NCBI GenBank assembly: GCA_043806835.1
Contig: JAZDGQ010000037.1
Span: 1-50,384 of the forward strand
Direction: 5' to 3'
Length of the DNA stretch: 50,384 nucleotides
Source: Pseudomonadota bacterium
GTDB taxonomy: Bacteria; Pseudomonadota; Alphaproteobacteria; Micavibrionales; UBA2020
The position numbers and the translations under genes are program-made. Every line of letters starts with the position of its first letter. Positions within the stretch are counted from its first letter, which is position 1. Below the pieces are notes generated by a model. It saw only the letters and a list, made by a program, of their open reading frames with translations. It had not been told where the DNA came from and did not search any database. Shown here in pieces: positions 1,777 to 17,323 of this stretch.

Positions 1777-2301
1777 TCAGTTGTTGAAAGCAGTCTGCCG
1801 CCGATACTTTCCGTCGGGAACCCAGAATTTCTTCGTATCCGGAATTTCCGAGAGGATTTTGTACACCTCATCATCGAAATTCTCAATGTGTACTTCCCCA
1901 AATACGATATTTTTCGCTTCAGGATATTTTTCTTTAAGAAGAAATGCGCTCAATTGTTCGGGAGCAAGAGAATATTTCTGGATTACATCGCCTTCAATTT
2001 TATACCTGATGACTTCTTTTTTATTGCTTTCTTTAATCATGAGGAAAGTATAGCTGCCCGCTTTCAGTGTTCTTGCAGTCATAGGGACATAACTCTTTTC
2101 TTTCTTCTCTCTCTCATCAAGGGTATCAATCTGATATGTGCCCCCTTTGTCAACTATGCCGTACCCTTCTTTGTCTTCGCCATTCCATTTTCCCAGGAGC
2201 GCCGGATCAATAATGCCCTTATCCCAGTAGGGTCCAAAATCTCCCACTGGTATGCAGGAAGAAAGAAACAGGGCAGTCAGACACAACAAGATTTTTTTCA
2301 T
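1777..2301 (-). CDS. AT-rich hypothetical lipoprotein
   Basis: MKKILLCLTALFLSSC lipobox; visibly lower GC than the flanks; 15 nt downstream of the MCE operon. Confidence 0.75.
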   Translation of the reverse strand: MKKILLCLTALFLSSCIPVGDFGPYWDKGIIDPALLGKWNGEDKEGYGIVDKGGTYQIDTLDEREKKEKSYVPMTARTLKAGSYTFLMIKESNKKEVIRYKIEGDVIQKYSLAPEQLSAFLLKEKYPEAKNIVFGEVHIENFDDEVYKILSEIPDTKKFWVPDGKYRRQTAFNN

Positions 2302-11849: not shown

Positions 11850-12641
11850 ATGGCGCACAAAGAAGGAAAAATGGGGTTACCGTCTGTGGAGACACGCGGG
11901 TTTACCCTTGTTGAACTGGCTATCGTGCTCACGATCATAGGGATCCTGATTGGCGGTATCCTGAAAGGGCAACAGCTGCTGGAAAACGCAAGGGTTGTTG
12001 CAACCATGAAGCAGGTGCAGGGCATTCAGGCTGCAGAAATTATTTTCAGGGATACATATGGCCACTGGCCCGGGGACATGCCCACCGCCACTACGCGCCT
12101 TACAGGGTGCGCCGCGCCCCTGTGCTTCGACGGTGATAATGATGGAATCATCGGTCAGACGACCGGAATTCAGGACGGCTCAAACGAAGCCCTTGTGACA
12201 TCTCCGGAAGTGGAAACGCGCATGTTCTGGAAGCATCTTTCACTGGCAGGGCTGATAACGGGCGTTGACGGGGGAAGCGATCCCGCCGTTCCGAGGTGGG
12301 GGTCGACCCACCCCGTCGCCCCTATGGGGGGTGGTTTTTACGCTTCCTATCACAACGGCAGCATAGTCACCTCCCCCAATACCACCACCGCCGGAAATTA
12401 TATCGCCATCGAAGGGGTTCTCGACCCGGCGGTTTCAACCTATTTACCTGAAAAAACGGTCACATCCTCCGGCATCGCCCTCAGGATCGACGAGAAGATG
12501 GACGACGGTCACCCCAACACGGGAACCATCGTCGCTGAACATACGAACACGGGGTGCAAGGATGTTGACGGCCCCGCCCCCGGCGAATACACGACCCCGC
12601 CCGGCAAACATGCCTGCCTTTTTTATTTCTTCCTGCAATAG
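11850..12641 (+). CDS. Prepilin-type N-terminal cleavage/methylation domain protein
   Basis: RG|FTLVELAIVLTIIGILIGGIL class III signal; WPGD, GDNDG, FWKHL and IDEKMDDG motifs; C-terminal Cys pair. Confidence 0.9.
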   Translation: MAHKEGKMGLPSVETRGFTLVELAIVLTIIGILIGGILKGQQLLENARVVATMKQVQGIQAAEIIFRDTYGHWPGDMPTATTRLTGCAAPLCFDGDNDGIIGQTTGIQDGSNEALVTSPEVETRMFWKHLSLAGLITGVDGGSDPAVPRWGSTHPVAPMGGGFYASYHNGSIVTSPNTTTAGNYIAIEGVLDPAVSTYLPEKTVTSSGIALRIDEKMDDGHPNTGTIVAEHTNTGCKDVDGPAPGEYTTPPGKHACLFYFFLQ

Positions 12642-12712: not shown

Positions 12713-13981
12713 GTGCGCGGAAGCCGCTTTCTCCTTTTATTTTTCATTTTACTGGCGACTTCCCCCGCTTATGCGGCGGATCAGGAGATGCTGCAGGTTG
12801 AGGGCATCCGCTACAGCGGGACGGGCGGGAAAAGCCGCATCGTGCTTGATCTCAACCGGAAAACGGATTTCAGGGCTTTCATGCTCGGCGACCCCTACCG
12901 TGTCGTGCTTGATCTCCCCAAGGCGAAATGGAAAACCTTCAAATCCCGGTTTATTTCGGACAGCATCGTTAAATCCTACCGCAGCGGGGAGCTGGACGGC
13001 GGGCTGACCCGCGTTATTTTCGACATAAGGAACCCGGCCGTCATCGAGAATATCTTCACGCTTGGCAAAGACGGCTTCAATAAGGACCGTCTGGTGATCG
13101 ATCTGGAACAGTCTTCCCTTCCTCTCTTTGACACCCGGAAAGGCCATGTTTTCGGCAACCGCCGTCTAAAGGGGGAGGGCGTCTCAGAAACGCTTCCCAA
13201 ATCGGAATACGGGGACGTTGAGAACGACATTGTCAAAGCATCCGTTCCGACGGTCACGCCCGCTCCCCTTCCCAGGCGGAAGCCGGAAAAATACACGATC
13301 GTCCTCGATCCGGGGCATGGCGGCGGAGACCCCGGCGCGGTCAGCCACGGCGTGAAGGAAAAGGCCATCACGCTGGCGGTGGCCATGGAACTGCGGCGCC
13401 AGCTTGAGGAAACGGGCAGCTACAGGGTCGTGCTGACGCGGGACGAGGACGTCTATGTCAGGCTCTATGAACGGGTGGATATTGCAAGGCGCATGAAAGG
13501 GGACCTGTTTATCTCCATTCACGCGGACAAGATCGACCGCGCGGGGGTGAAGGGGGTCTCCGTCTACACCCTGTCCGAAAAGGCGTCGGATGCGGAAACG
13601 GCAAGGCTGGCCGAAGATGAAAATAACTCAGGTTTCGTGGCGGGAGTCGATCTCGGTCAGGAAACCCAGGACGTGGCGGACATTCTCCTGGATCTGGCCA
13701 TGCGCGAAAAGACAAATGAATCAAATCTGTTCGCGCGGATGCTCACGCAGACGCTGGCGCGAAAAAATATCAAACTGTTGCCGAATTCACACAGATCCGC
13801 CGGATTCGCGGTTCTGAAGGCGCCGGACATTCCGTCGATACTGATCGAAACAGGGTTCATTTCCAATCCGAACGAGGCCAAATTGATGCGCTCGGCGCAG
13901 TTTCGACGAAAAATCGCAGACGCCATACTGGAGGGGATCAATGCTTATTTCCAAAAAATGCTGTCCCTTCAGAAGCCCTGA
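12713..13981 (+). CDS. amiC: N-acetylmuramoyl-L-alanine amidase (AMIN + Amidase_3)
   Basis: Signal peptide; DPYRVVLDL AMIN-like region; IVLDPGHGG, SIHAD, AGFAVLK, LIETGFISN. Confidence 0.92.
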   Translation: MRGSRFLLLFFILLATSPAYAADQEMLQVEGIRYSGTGGKSRIVLDLNRKTDFRAFMLGDPYRVVLDLPKAKWKTFKSRFISDSIVKSYRSGELDGGLTRVIFDIRNPAVIENIFTLGKDGFNKDRLVIDLEQSSLPLFDTRKGHVFGNRRLKGEGVSETLPKSEYGDVENDIVKASVPTVTPAPLPRRKPEKYTIVLDPGHGGGDPGAVSHGVKEKAITLAVAMELRRQLEETGSYRVVLTRDEDVYVRLYERVDIARRMKGDLFISIHADKIDRAGVKGVSVYTLSEKASDAETARLAEDENNSGFVAGVDLGQETQDVADILLDLAMREKTNESNLFARMLTQTLARKNIKLLPNSHRSAGFAVLKAPDIPSILIETGFISNPNEAKLMRSAQFRRKIADAILEGINAYFQKMLSLQKP

Positions 13982-14113
13982 ATACCCACAATTTTTCGAC
14001 GGGCTCATCTTTAGCCTATGGACTTGCGCGGGTTTCTGTAGTACATAAATCTAGTAGTTGCGTCGTACAATTGTCTCGTTTCAGGGACGTCTATCAGGAA
14101 GAGGATCATTACA

Positions 14114-14236
14114 ATGAAAAGTTTCACACTGGCGCTTTCCATGCTCGCAGCCCTGTCGCTTGCCGCATGCACAACCGGGAAACCGGTTGACTCCGCCAAA
14201 GCTGACACCACTTTCAGCAAGTCTTTGCACAAATAA
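14114..14236 (+). CDS. 40-aa lipoprotein with Lpp/OprI-like C-terminus
   Basis: Below the ORF-track cutoff. MKSFTLALSMLAALSLAAC TTGKPVDSAKADTTFSKSLHK*; lipobox LAAC; GAGGA Shine-Dalgarno 8 nt upstream; C-terminal Lys. Confidence 0.85.
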   Translation: MKSFTLALSMLAALSLAACTTGKPVDSAKADTTFSKSLHK

Positions 14237-14262
14237 TCTGAAGTCCGGAACCGGAAGAGGCC

Positions 14263-15405
14263 TTAGTTGTAGTTGAAGCCTCCCGGTTCCGGCTTTTTCT
14301 TTTCCGGTTCCGGCTTCCGGTCGATGATGACGGGGTAGCCGAGGCGCTCTTCGACGGCCTTCTCAACGATATCCCAGTCAATCCGCCCCTCGGGGATTCC
14401 GGCGGCGGCGATGATGGCTTTTTTGAGGGTGCCGCTCATGCCCTCGAGGGCATGAGATCCTCCGATTTCAATCTCGCCGCTCTGGGACCTTGACGGGTTG
14501 GCCTCCAGATAAACGTCATCGCCGACGCGCCCAACCAGGATCGGCTGATCGACCACGGTGACCTTGGTGCCGACAGGCACCTTGTTGAAAAGCTCGATGA
14601 TATCTTCCGGGTACATCCTCATGCAGCCGGAACTGACGCGGCGGCCAATGGCCCAGGGCTTGTTGGATCCGTGGATCAGGAAGGTCGGCCATCCCAGGTA
14701 GAGCGCGTGGGTGCCGAGGGGGTTGGAGGGGCCGGCCGGAACGGCAGCGGGAAGCCATGGTTTTTCCTCAAGCATCCGCTCGGTCGGGCGCCACACGGGG
14801 TCGGCGGTCTTGCGGATGACGGTCGTTTCCCCCGTCGGGGTCTGGAGCCCTTCACGCCCGATGCCGATGGGGAAGGTCACGGGGTCTTTTTCCGGGCCTT
14901 CAAAATAATACAGACGCATCTGCGCCAGGTTCACGACGATGCCTTCCTGCCGGGCGCGGGGCAGCAGCCTGAAGGAGGGAATGACAATCTGTTCGCCCGG
15001 CACTGGCGTCCAGGGATCGACTTTCGGATTCGCGGCGCGGATTTCAACGAACCCAAGCCTGAAATGGCGCGCCACGTCCAGCAGGGTGTCCTCTTCGCCG
15101 ACAGAATAGGTCTGCGGCTTTCCCAGAGCGATGCGGGCGCCAGGCGGGGATGAAGGCAGGGCGGCGGTTTCGCCCGCATCCGTTTCGGGAAGAGCCTTCT
15201 TTTCCGGAGCGTTGCCGTCCGCGACGGGGACGGGAGCGGGCGGTAAAGGGCGGGTTCGAGGAAGGACGATTTTTTCCGTCTTCGCCTCCATCTCCTTCTC
15301 CATCACCTGCGCCAGCGGAACAACGGAGGCAAAAGACACCGGGATGGAGACCGTCAGAAGGGCGGCAGCCAGAAGAGGGGGGACGGCGGGGTAAAGTCGG
15401 CGCAT
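14263..15405 (-). CDS. L,D-transpeptidase, ErfK/YbiS/YcfS type (LysM-like + YkuD)
   Basis: DTLLDVARHF..ANPKVDPW, IVVNLAQMRLYY, PIGIGR, GPSNPLG, IHGSN..IGRRVSSGCMRM; start placed at ATG 15405. Confidence 0.93.
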   Translation of the reverse strand: MRRLYPAVPPLLAAALLTVSIPVSFASVVPLAQVMEKEMEAKTEKIVLPRTRPLPPAPVPVADGNAPEKKALPETDAGETAALPSSPPGARIALGKPQTYSVGEEDTLLDVARHFRLGFVEIRAANPKVDPWTPVPGEQIVIPSFRLLPRARQEGIVVNLAQMRLYYFEGPEKDPVTFPIGIGREGLQTPTGETTVIRKTADPVWRPTERMLEEKPWLPAAVPAGPSNPLGTHALYLGWPTFLIHGSNKPWAIGRRVSSGCMRMYPEDIIELFNKVPVGTKVTVVDQPILVGRVGDDVYLEANPSRSQSGEIEIGGSHALEGMSGTLKKAIIAAAGIPEGRIDWDIVEKAVEERLGYPVIIDRKPEPEKKKPEPGGFNYN

Positions 15406-15476
15406 GAAGGTCTCTTTTTGTCTTTCGGTCGGCGGGGAATCTGCACGGAAACGGTTGGGGAAAAGGCTCAATAAAC

Positions 15477-15965
15477 CTATTCCTCCGCCTTATCCCCCTT
15501 TTCCTGCAGGTCGCCGCGTTTGTACCTGTCGATATCACGCTCCAGCATATTGAGTTCCTCGCAATCCATATGCCCGCAGGTCATGCGGATCACCTGCATC
15601 TGTTCGAGCGCCCGCGGCATGTCGCCTTTGTCCAGATACATCTCCGCGAGATAAGCGTTGGCGCCGAGATGCGCCGGATTGATCGTCAGGGCTTTTTTGA
15701 AATTTCTGGTGGCGTTGGCGGTTTCGCCGAGGCGGTAGTAGGCGTAGCCACGGTAAGTATAGGCATCCGCGTTGGCGGGATGGCGCGCCAGAACGTCGTT
15801 CGCTGTGTTCAGCGCCGCGCTGAACTGCCCTGCGGACAAAAGATATTCCGCCTTTGTAAGGCCGGAATCTTCCCGGAACGGGATATCCTTTTCCTCCGCG
15901 GCGGCGGACACATCCTGAAACATCAGGCTCAGGAAACAGAGCGCTAAAATAAGGATCTTCGTCAT
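15477..15965 (-). CDS. Secreted tetratricopeptide repeat protein
   Basis: Signal peptide; TPR motifs PANADAYTYRGYAYYRLG and PAHLGANAYLAEMY. Confidence 0.85.
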   Translation of the reverse strand: MTKILILALCFLSLMFQDVSAAAEEKDIPFREDSGLTKAEYLLSAGQFSAALNTANDVLARHPANADAYTYRGYAYYRLGETANATRNFKKALTINPAHLGANAYLAEMYLDKGDMPRALEQMQVIRMTCGHMDCEELNMLERDIDRYKRGDLQEKGDKAEE

Positions 15966-17323
15966 TCGATTGTCAGGATCAGGCAGTTGTCTTTCAATAT
16001 CCGGCAGACCTGCGTGGCGTCGTTGCGGGCAAGGCCGGACAGCCGTGCCCGGTAAACCATGCCGCGGCTGGTCATGAGCGGGGCAATGGACTCCATGCCG
16101 CTGTTTATGCCGCGCAGGCTCCTCTTGGCGGAACCCAGCGCCTTCATGCCGGCTTTATGGCTGGAAAAAGCGCCGACCTGAACGGCCCAGACGCCCTCTC
16201 CGGACGTTTCCTTCTGCTGATAGGCTCCCATGGAATCGATGTTGAGAGTGCGAGGCCGGAAAGCCGTTTCCATGCTTCCCTTTCCGTTATCGTCGCCGAT
16301 GTCCGTATCTCCCTGATCCATGACAAGACCCATGGCATCGAACTGGGGCGTCCGGGAACGTCCGGAGGCGTCCGCATCGGGGCTATCCGCTTCGGGAATG
16401 TCGGAAACGAAAGAGGGTCTGCGGCCAAGCAGGGGACTGTCCTTCCCTTCTCCGGAGAGGGAGGCCATGCGAATGTTGCCCGCGCCGGCAAATCCCCGGT
16501 CAAGCAGTTGCGTCATGGCGTTGTTACGGATTTCGGAGGTTCTGCCGCCGAAAACGACGCCGATCAGACGCGTGCCGTTACGAACGGCGGAGGAGGCAAG
16601 ATTATAGCCGGAGGCATAAACATAGCCGGTCTTGAGGCCGTCCATGCCCTGATAACTGCTCATCAGCTTATTGTGATTCCTGTAGATGCGGCCGTTATAG
16701 GTAAAAGAGTCCGTGCTGAAATAACGGTAATGCCGGGGGTAGTCATTAATCAGCGCCCGGGAAAGAATCGCCATGTCGTACGCGCTGCTCACCTGCGCCG
16801 GGTGAAAAAGGCCGGAAGCGTTGATGAAGCGGGTATTTTTCATGCCGAGTTGCCGCGCTTTCCTTGTCATCGCAAGGGCAAAGCCTTCCTCGGAGCCCTC
16901 GACAGCCTCCGCAAGCGCTACGGCGCAATCATTGGCGGATTTCGTGACGATGCCCAGAATCGCATCCTCGACGCGGAGGGTCTCTCCAGCCTCCAGACCC
17001 AGGGAGGAAGGCTCCTGCGCCGCCGCCCTCTTTGAAACGGAGAGGCGCCGGTTCTTGCTCAACCTTCCCCCTTCGATGGCCTCAAAAGTCAGGTAAAGCG
17101 TCATCATTTTGGTGAGGGAGGCTGGATACAGCCGTTTATCTGCATTCTTTCCGCTGAGCACGCGACCGGTCGAAGCGTCGATGACGATTTCGGCAAACCG
17201 GTCAGGCATCCGGCGGCTGGCGTTCTTTTTTCTATGGGCGGCCTCTGCGGAGCCTGCCCCCAGAGAGAGAATCAGAGCCGCAACCAGGAGAAAGACTGAA
17301 AACCGCTGCAGCTTCAAACGCAT
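15962..17323 (-). CDS. D-alanyl-D-alanine carboxypeptidase with C-terminal SPOR domain
   Basis: PASLTK (SxxK), SAND (SxN), KTG; WAVQVGAF and YRARL SPOR motifs. Confidence 0.92.
   Translation of the reverse strand: MRLKLQRFSVFLLVAALILSLGAGSAEAAHRKKNASRRMPDRFAEIVIDASTGRVLSGKNADKRLYPASLTKMMTLYLTFEAIEGGRLSKNRRLSVSKRAAAQEPSSLGLEAGETLRVEDAILGIVTKSANDCAVALAEAVEGSEEGFALAMTRKARQLGMKNTRFINASGLFHPAQVSSAYDMAILSRALINDYPRHYRYFSTDSFTYNGRIYRNHNKLMSSYQGMDGLKTGYVYASGYNLASSAVRNGTRLIGVVFGGRTSEIRNNAMTQLLDRGFAGAGNIRMASLSGEGKDSPLLGRRPSFVSDIPEADSPDADASGRSRTPQFDAMGLVMDQGDTDIGDDNGKGSMETAFRPRTLNIDSMGAYQQKETSGEGVWAVQVGAFSSHKAGMKALGSAKRSLRGINSGMESIAPLMTSRGMVYRARLSGLARNDATQVCRILKDNCLILTIE

Follow-up and report, generated by a model that had tools for sequence, protein, structure and literature searches.

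A 40-codon gene in a 50,384-nt stretch of alphaproteobacterial DNA (order Micavibrionales, contig JAZDGQ010000037.1; the whole stretch is called the window in the following, and coordinates are positions in it unless a contig or locus is named) encodes a predicted lipoprotein with a mature part of only 22 residues, and lies between an amidase gene on the same strand and a convergent gene for an L,D-transpeptidase (LDT). The protein belongs to an order-wide family, and its sequence suggests that it is probably a tether of the Braun/OprI type without the coiled coil, cross-linked to peptidoglycan via its C-terminal Lys. The tether type itself is already known; what is new here is the coil-less variant, together with a family for which the databases hold no model.

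The gene was proposed in an earlier note made from the letters of the window alone, and its open reading frame (ORF) of 40 codons, Shine-Dalgarno site, LAAC lipobox and quoted residues are all as described there (Table 1). The predicted mature peptide runs from Cys19 to Lys40 of the translated ORF and ends in His-Lys. Directly 3' of the stop codon, and overlapping the 3' end of the opposite-strand LDT ORF, lies a terminator-like hairpin with an RNA fold of -32.2 kcal/mol (z = -5.3), a stability reached by none of 200 shuffles; the hairpin came from direct folding, and a simple promoter/terminator scan of positions 13850-14450 listed neither a hairpin nor a sigma-70-like promoter. A sceptic could point to this empty promoter scan and to the mere 40 codons and regard the ORF as a chance frame in the amidase-LDT spacer from which no protein is made. 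Such a view is hardly credible, since relatives hold, in the same place, homologous ORFs that share the signal peptide, the lipobox and the tail, which puts the ORF far beyond chance; the conservation is seen at the protein level throughout the order, in the signal peptide, in a Cys that never varies, in changes of length that keep the frame and in a tail under constraint, and the Shine-Dalgarno site and the hairpin stand beside it. On this comparison of sequences, the ORF is a real, conserved gene. It is not, as had been supposed, too small for typical gene callers: the exact 40-residue product is already on record in a public protein collection, and longer relatives are annotated as hypothetical proteins.

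The family was delineated by searching 41 related genomes and reading their loci, which contain small lipoprotein ORFs between a same-strand amidase and a convergent LDT. Two alignments were made, A1 with 16 rows and a broader A2 with 42 rows; the lipobox Cys and the last Lys are invariant in A1, and the lipobox Cys is likewise invariant in A2. When the A1 profile was run against a collection of 5.8 billion proteins, 162 matches were obtained at E<=0.01, and 119 of the 120 matches listed end in Lys, the exception being a 98-residue entry that reads past ..HK. The sources label these matches "hypothetical protein", and they come from metagenome-assembled genomes labelled Alphaproteobacteria, Micavibrio sp. 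or Bdellovibrionales. Searching 1.84 billion representatives exhaustively returned 49 matches at E<=0.001, and all 42 of the small proteins retrieved anew also end in Lys. Within the order, the A2 profile matches 269 of 301 genomes at E<=1e-5. By family (f1 to f8 in the numbering of this analysis, the window belonging to f1), the matches amount to 41/41 in f1, 210/218 in f6, 7/9 in f8, 5/15 in f5, 3/10 in f3, 1/3 in each of f4 and f7, and 0/1 in f2. In a sample of 401 genomes from across the class, the profile gives full-length matches in three genomes of the same order and in none of the 398 outside it, while three further matches cover the signal peptide only, inside longer ORFs.

Pooling the members with a mature part of at most 62 residues gave 211 distinct mature sequences of 20-62 residues, with a median of 41. 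All 211 end in Lys, a count that leans on a profile which itself contains the tail; the residue before it is Arg in 137 and His in 46 (183/211), and the tail consensus of the family is KADKTFSKSLRK. A GRTAG-like core (the WTP..GRTAG middle) is present in 190 of the 211, and 11 short forms of at most 30 residues, that of the window included, are without this middle. The family spans the order, a mature peptide of about 41 residues being its usual form, and the 22-residue form of the window is a short variant derived within it. Two versions of the middle exist among the long forms (A1, A5): one, WTPMS.GRTAG.GT, lacks Cys, and the other, ..P.C.GRTAGKC, contains two Cys that, to judge from the sequence, could close a disulphide loop. 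Family members contain no Pfam domain and correspond to no Pfam or NCBIfam model, the matches of the small protein in these databases being below threshold and of the signal-peptide type, and a search of the ESM Atlas gave generic small-lipoprotein clusters only. An identity as an entericidin-like or SlyB-like lipoprotein was dropped for want of a family match, although one name given by the Joint Genome Institute (JGI) reads SlyB. A literature search that did not extend to supplementary files returned no paper on the small-lipoprotein family or on the pairing of an alanine-zipper lipoprotein with an LDT in Alphaproteobacteria.

The position of the gene is conserved as well. An amidase is found upstream of it in 16/16 loci of A1, in 30/30 loci of f1 and in 10/14 loci of f6 and f8, and an LDT beside it in 14/16, 27/30 and 6/14, respectively. 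Conversely, the LDT of the window was used as a query to gather 80 loci from named genomes, comprising loci of the order, with an LDT at least 51% identical, and distant loci, with an LDT 38-48% identical. Of the 40 loci from the order, 35 have a member of the small family immediately downstream of the LDT and convergent to it (33 detected by hmmsearch, two by pattern); it was not found at L081, L115, L116 or the truncated L114.

The second line of evidence is the likeness of the tail to that of OprI and other alanine-zipper lipoproteins (PF11839), which the earlier note had put forward and which is borne out here. The C-terminal box of PF11839 proteins, ..(K/R)x(D/N)xxFxx(S/A)(L/M)xK, is present in the window protein. 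Alignment of A2 with an alignment of coiled alanine-zipper lipoproteins (A3) by hhalign matched the signal peptides and nothing else over the whole length, and for the mature parts the last 15 columns align end to end (Prob 84%, E 7.5e-6). A log-odds matrix was built from 10 distinct alanine-zipper tails of 12 residues. The window tail scores 18.5 bits with it, and the background, taken from the genome of the window (5456 ORFs, each at least 100 residues long), has a mean of -20.9, a standard deviation of 6.1 and a maximum of 3.9; 159 of 161 family members exceed this maximum, and only 5.4% of the background ORFs end in Lys. As to the models of the established families, none of the 42 A2 members passes the 23.1-bit cut-off of PF11839 (one matches at E 0.0016) and neither these members nor the window protein match the LPP family PF04728 (cut-off 29.1 bits), whose best score in the genome, 17.7 bits, lies elsewhere. 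The genome of the window holds no PF11839 gene over the cut-off.

Coiled lipoproteins are found in the corresponding place in other bacteria. In 12 of 39 gammaproteobacterial and betaproteobacterial loci among the distant ones, the same convergent position is occupied by an alanine-rich lipoprotein of 79-108 residues with a tail such as ..KIDRMFKKSMYK or ..KVDRAFKKAMAK; these loci are from Spongiibacteraceae, Granulosicoccaceae, Nitrosomonas, Competibacteraceae, Nevskiales, Methylomonas, Magnetococcales and others. Of 11 coiled lipoproteins scanned with Pfam (10 from distant loci and one from Geminicoccaceae, L117), 10 pass the PF11839 cut-off, L117 barely (23.6 versus 23.1 bits), and the one from Magnetococcales falls below it. 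Across the class, PF11839 passes its cut-off in 24 of 401 genomes, none of them of the order of the window. Twenty alphaproteobacterial PF11839 loci were read: 15 contain a Lys-ended coiled lipoprotein, with tails such as ..EKADRMFQRSLRK, and in 15 an LDT homologue lies no more than 1.5 kb away (10 convergent, five in tandem). In three of the twenty (L169, L177 and L180), one to five residues follow the Arg-Lys (..RKTAPPQ, ..RKGVGS, ..RKN), so that these proteins are either trimmed or not anchored via that Lys. Within the order itself, a genome of family f5 (G050) encodes downstream of the amidase (L222:1026-1226, minus strand) a lipoprotein of 67 residues that has a short coil rich in alanine and ends in ..EKNKRMFDASQRK; it scores 17.7 bits with PF11839, below the cut-off, and matches the C-terminal half of the model, its coil being about half-length. 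To judge from its sequence, it looks like a possible intermediate between coiled and coil-less forms.

These comparisons also bear on the question of ancestry, because a tether function could be right and a shared origin wrong, the tail having converged on recognition by the LDT in a family unrelated to alanine-zipper lipoproteins. The confinement of the likeness to 12-15 residues fits this possibility, as do the single subthreshold PF11839 match and the whole-length alignment of signal peptides alone; moreover, the "Lpp box" of Dickeya is reported to tolerate many substitutions, and such boxes may therefore arise easily (PMC12274547). Convergence is nevertheless rather unlikely, given that the place beside homologous LDT genes is common to several classes, that a half-length alanine coil and the same tail occur together at this place in G050, and that the small-family profile matches a Nitrosomonas alanine-zipper protein with an E-value of 1.2e-7.

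Neither a long alpha-helical coil nor an alanine-rich heptad coil is present in the sequences of the aligned members or in two AlphaFold2 models. For the window protein, helices are predicted at residues 3-20 and 27-39, the latter a 13-residue tail helix (mean predicted local distance difference test, pLDDT, 71.4), and for a 64-residue relative (36 aligned sequences) the model consists of a signal helix, an irregular low-confidence stretch at 20-52 and an 11-residue helix at 53-63 (mean pLDDT 66.6). Taken together, the likeness of the tail, the adjacent LDT and the missing long helix fit the proposal that the anchoring motif has been kept and the coil lost; what has to be amended is that the 22-residue form is a variant of a family in which about 41 residues are the norm.

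The enzyme that would act on this tail is encoded 26 nt away, counted between the stop codons. The longest ORF of the LDT is 14263..15471 on the minus strand, with a probable ATG start at 15405 and, as read from the sequence, a hydrophobic signal-like segment at the N-terminus. Its YkuD domain is clear (PF03734, 2.3e-23, 83.8 bits) and its LysM match is not (16.2 bits, cut-off 20.9); among the NCBIfam models LdtE fits best, with 187 bits that fall well short of its cut-off of 480, no equivalog cut-off is reached, and the nearest solved chains are 9tyw_A (2.5e-60) and 4lzh_A (1.1e-46). The catalytic motif HGSNKPWAIGRRVSSGCMR, which includes Cys283 (14623-14625; His267 at 14671-14673, both in the numbering of the 402-residue ORF), is intact, and HG...SSGC.R is invariant across 30 orthologues. 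The genome, 97% complete, contains two YkuD ORFs, of which only this one has a signal peptide. The second (contig C34, L023:1432-1959, plus strand) is 176 residues long, shows no evident signal peptide and matches no NCBIfam model, and its sequence suggests that it may be a cytoplasmic enzyme; the LDT of the window is therefore the only evident periplasmic LDT of the genome.

From these elements a mechanism can be proposed. The signal peptide would be cut at the lipobox and Cys19 lipidated, after which the mature peptide would be inserted into the outer membrane's inner leaflet. The 12-residue tail would then offer its C-terminal Lys to the convergently encoded periplasmic LDT with its LysM-like and YkuD domains, whose Cys283 would form an acyl-enzyme with a tetrapeptide stem of peptidoglycan; resolution by the epsilon-amine of the Lys would give an amide between meso-diaminopimelate (mDAP) and Lys, and the outer membrane would be stapled to the wall. 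In evolutionary terms, the family would be an order-specific derivative of the pair of genes for an alanine-zipper (OprI-type) lipoprotein and an LDT, in which the coil gave way in most members to a short stretch without structure, and this stretch was almost wholly deleted in the lineage of the window. In a tree of LDTs, built to count independent shortenings, the window and G002 group as sisters (100/100), and G004, the third short form, groups with a long form only at weak support (83/79); the short forms may thus have arisen once or several times.

The chemistry envisaged here has well-studied precedents. In Pseudomonas aeruginosa, OprI is reported to be anchored to peptidoglycan via its Arg-Lys end by LdtPae2, an enzyme of the ErfK/YbiS/YcfS/YnhG lineage; in strain PA14, the tripeptide stem bearing Lys-Arg comes only from OprI and is abolished by deletion of ldtPae2, and the enzyme also anchors Lpp when expressed in E. 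coli (PMC10434034). The oprI gene is PA2853 (PMC4694138), and PA2854 has been termed a putative L,D-transpeptidase (bioRxiv 10.64898/2026.04.14.718437); it may correspond to LdtPae2 (PA14_27180). Like OprI, the window protein is small, is predicted to be lipidated at its N-terminus and carries a C-terminal box ..D..F..S/A.L/M.R/H/Y-K with a Lys end, and its gene stands, as in many Proteobacteria, beside that of an LDT of the ErfK/YbiS/YcfS/YnhG lineage, which is a recurrent association and not a family criterion. Unlike OprI and its kin, the family has no alanine-rich coil and a mature part of 22 residues here and 20-62 overall versus about 60-90 in the coiled forms, and its middle, where present, is the Gly/Pro/Thr-rich WTP..GRTAG segment, predicted by AlphaFold2 to be irregular.

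With E. coli Lpp (PF04728; LdtA/B/C), the window protein shares the lipobox and a C-terminal basic residue followed by Lys, and the mDAP-Lys link is proposed here for it; in contrast to Lpp, it is not expected to form a helical trimer. The convergent layout is identical to that of lpp and ldtE, which are neighbours 63 nt apart in E. coli MG1655, and it is the LdtE model against which the window LDT scores best. According to a survey with the Pfam LPP model, Lpp occurs in four gammaproteobacterial orders only (bioRxiv 10.1101/2021.05.31.446380). In other systems, covalent links between outer membrane and peptidoglycan are reported to be made by LDTs without Lpp, namely with beta-barrels in Brucella and Agrobacterium and with LimB in Coxiella (PMC12729407, PMC12274547); these use N-terminal Ala or Gly amines or an internal Lys, whereas the window protein would use the C-terminal Lys of a minimal lipopeptide. 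The available part of a 2025 review on LDTs lists no alphaproteobacterial lipoprotein with a C-terminal Lys among tethered proteins and has no mention of OprI (PMC12729407).

The tail is not restricted to the small family. A loose tail pattern matches two of the 19,753 ORFs of at least 30 residues in the genome of the window, namely the small gene and an ORF on another contig (C102:1495-2010, plus strand), which encodes a 171-residue lipoprotein of no Pfam family, with a Pro/Ala-rich linker followed by ..ATEESFRKSMQK. Its relatives in the genus and family (L194-L200) keep Lys-ended tails (..EKAISKSLRK, ..ADKSLDKSLRK, ..ADKAFSRTSRK), and by its sequence the protein may be a second substrate of the LDT. 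That one genome uses the same tail for two lipoproteins with no other relationship suggests a modular tag, for which Dickeya dadantii offers a parallel: there, a six-residue Lys-ended "Lpp box" is reported to be both required and enough for OutB or a beta-lactamase reporter to become attached to peptidoglycan, and to tolerate substitutions (PMC12274547). That box is likewise a short Lys-ended C-terminal anchoring tag, portable there by experiment and here by inference, and it differs in sequence and in its carrier, a scaffold protein of type II secretion in the inner membrane. It is tentatively suggested, with slightly less than an even claim to being right, that the tail is a self-sufficient portable anchoring tag read by a single periplasmic LDT, that the order staples its outer membrane with unstructured lipopeptides of 20-62 residues, and that at least one other lipoprotein bears the same tag.

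Several points weigh against a covalent tether. Besides the dependence of the terminal-Lys count on the profile, there are loci in which the LDT is not within the flank (3/30 in f1, 8/14 in f6 and f8). LDT orthologues are present in 294 of the 301 genomes of the order, whether or not the lipoprotein is detected, and this near-universality means that their co-occurrence with it gives no signal. By estimate, the mature peptide spans only about 5 nm with a helical tail and, when fully extended, no more than about 8 nm, the Lpp rod measuring about 8 nm. Anchoring and cross-linking LDTs are reported not to form separate lineages, and their function cannot be read from phylogeny (PMC10434034); the lpp-adjacent LdtE of E. 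coli is described as a cross-linker and not as an Lpp-anchoring enzyme (PMC12729407). Expression, sorting to the outer membrane, the covalent link and the choice of linking enzyme are steps that we infer. When an orthologous LDT (alignment A4, residues 75-378) was modelled in complex with its mature lipoprotein of 45 residues (A5), the score was 0.00 against a mark of 0.32, which speaks neither for nor against binding.

A further point concerns the Lys itself. In 10 genomes without a profile match, the region downstream of the amidase was read, and a small lipoprotein was found to end in Lys in four (G050, G030, G033, G025) and in Gln in three, and was not found in three (G063, G032, G038). 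The three Gln-ended cases belong to genus g11 (L010/G028, L221/G071, L224/G045), where 62-residue positional homologues end ..KSGRTFE(G/A)Q or ..KSGRTFKAQ, with tails about three residues shorter and no terminal Lys, and with no LDT within the flank; the protein can thus persist without Lys. The constancy of the terminal Lys among homologues, which had been named in advance as a test, accordingly holds for all profile-detected members and fails in 3/3 genomes of one genus. The lipoprotein might then act non-covalently, as a small regulator in the outer membrane or as a docking peptide for the amidase, the LDT or peptidoglycan, with the tail as a binding epitope. The Gln-ended homologues would suit such a role, and so would the constant place behind a same-strand amidase and the WTP..GRTAG middle, which has no part in the tether model. 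This middle is dispensable, however, as the 11 short forms demonstrate, and an epitope accounts less well for a terminal Lys in every profile-detected member, for a tail common to OprI-type proteins, whose Arg-Lys end is reported as a proven cross-link site (PMC10434034), and for the same tail on the unrelated 171-residue lipoprotein; a non-covalent role is therefore judged unlikely, though it is the alternative to be taken most seriously. Finally, the Lys-ended tail could be a signal of another kind, for a C-terminal processing protease, envelope sorting or quality control. The residues beyond Arg-Lys in L169, L177 and L180 could imply trimming, and recurrent aromatic-Asn C-termini on exported proteins of the genome hint that C-terminal signals may be in use, but no known protease signal of such a form was found and cross-linking by LDTs is, as reported, the one experimentally established role of this type of tail (PMC10434034, PMC12274547), which makes this explanation very improbable. 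A coil-less tether anchored via the C-terminal Lys thus remains the preferred reading.

Table 1. Position of the small lipoprotein gene, its parts and the adjoining genes in the window
Feature	Position	Strand	Basis and remarks
Small lipoprotein gene	14114..14236	+	40 codons and TAA; ORF read from sequence, supported by family profile
Shine-Dalgarno-like site AGGAAGAGGA	14096-14105	+	8 nt separate GAGGA from ATG; read from sequence
Signal peptide, residues 1-18	14114..14167	+	Predicted from sequence; AlphaFold2 helix at residues 3-20
Lipobox L-A-A-C, residues 16-19	Cys19 codon 14168-14170	+	Cys19 is the predicted lipidated residue 1 of the mature peptide
Conserved 12-residue tail KADTTFSKSLHK, putative peptidoglycan-anchoring box	14198..14233	+	Lys40 codon 14231-14233
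Terminator-like hairpin	14240..14303	+	Core arms 14245-14254 and 14283-14292, then T-rich run 14294-14303
L,D-transpeptidase: LysM-like domain, YkuD domain, C-terminal region	14263..15405	-	Pfam, orthologue alignment
N-acetylmuramoyl-L-alanine amidase, AMIN and Amidase_3	12713..13981	+	Pfam Amidase_3 4.2e-50, AMIN 5.9e-13; directly upstream of lipoprotein gene
TPR protein with signal peptide	15477..15965	-	Pfam TPR_16 6.5e-11; upstream of LDT on the LDT strand
D-alanyl-D-alanine carboxypeptidase, Peptidase_S11, weak SPOR-like C-terminus	15962..17323	-	Pfam 1.6e-64; SPOR 0.065, under cut-off

The convergent LDT and the surrounding peptidoglycan cluster of amidase, TPR protein and DD-carboxypeptidase correspond to the earlier description, the LysM match being subthreshold. 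Just upstream of the amidase, positions 11850-12641 (plus strand) code for a protein of 263 residues whose N-terminus carries a methylation motif of the prepilin type (Pfam N_methyl 1.2e-5), and elsewhere the genome contains seven genes with an OmpA domain. In one member of the genus (G010:C119:2233-3318, L013), the LDT orthologue has an in-frame TAG next to an intact lipoprotein gene, so either the LDT gene is disrupted or the assembly is at fault. Most LDT orthologues of the order end in an aromatic residue and Asn (..YN, ..YNN, ..FNYN), that of the window in ..GGFNYN (14263-14280), and three other exported proteins or lipoproteins of the genome end in ..AFNN, ..GYNQ and ..AFN (window 1777-2301, minus strand; C47:42450-43673; C33:29651-30505).

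Lipoprotein tethering through a C-terminal Lys is usually presented as a gammaproteobacterial trait, and Alphaproteobacteria are described as using beta-barrels. Here, lipoproteins of the OprI type with Arg-Lys tails are seen beside LDT genes in scattered Alphaproteobacteria, and a whole order appears to have swapped the coiled coil for a flexible peptide of short length but kept the tail. If the reading as a covalent tether is true, tethering of the Lpp type via a C-terminal Lys exists in Alphaproteobacteria, the window encodes the smallest natural tether of the Braun type, and neither a coil nor trimerisation is needed for covalent tethering. The family would then be a natural set of tethers that range in length from 20 to 62 residues, with which to test how length and stiffness set the geometry of the periplasm, and its 12-residue tail would be a candidate tag for attaching proteins to peptidoglycan.

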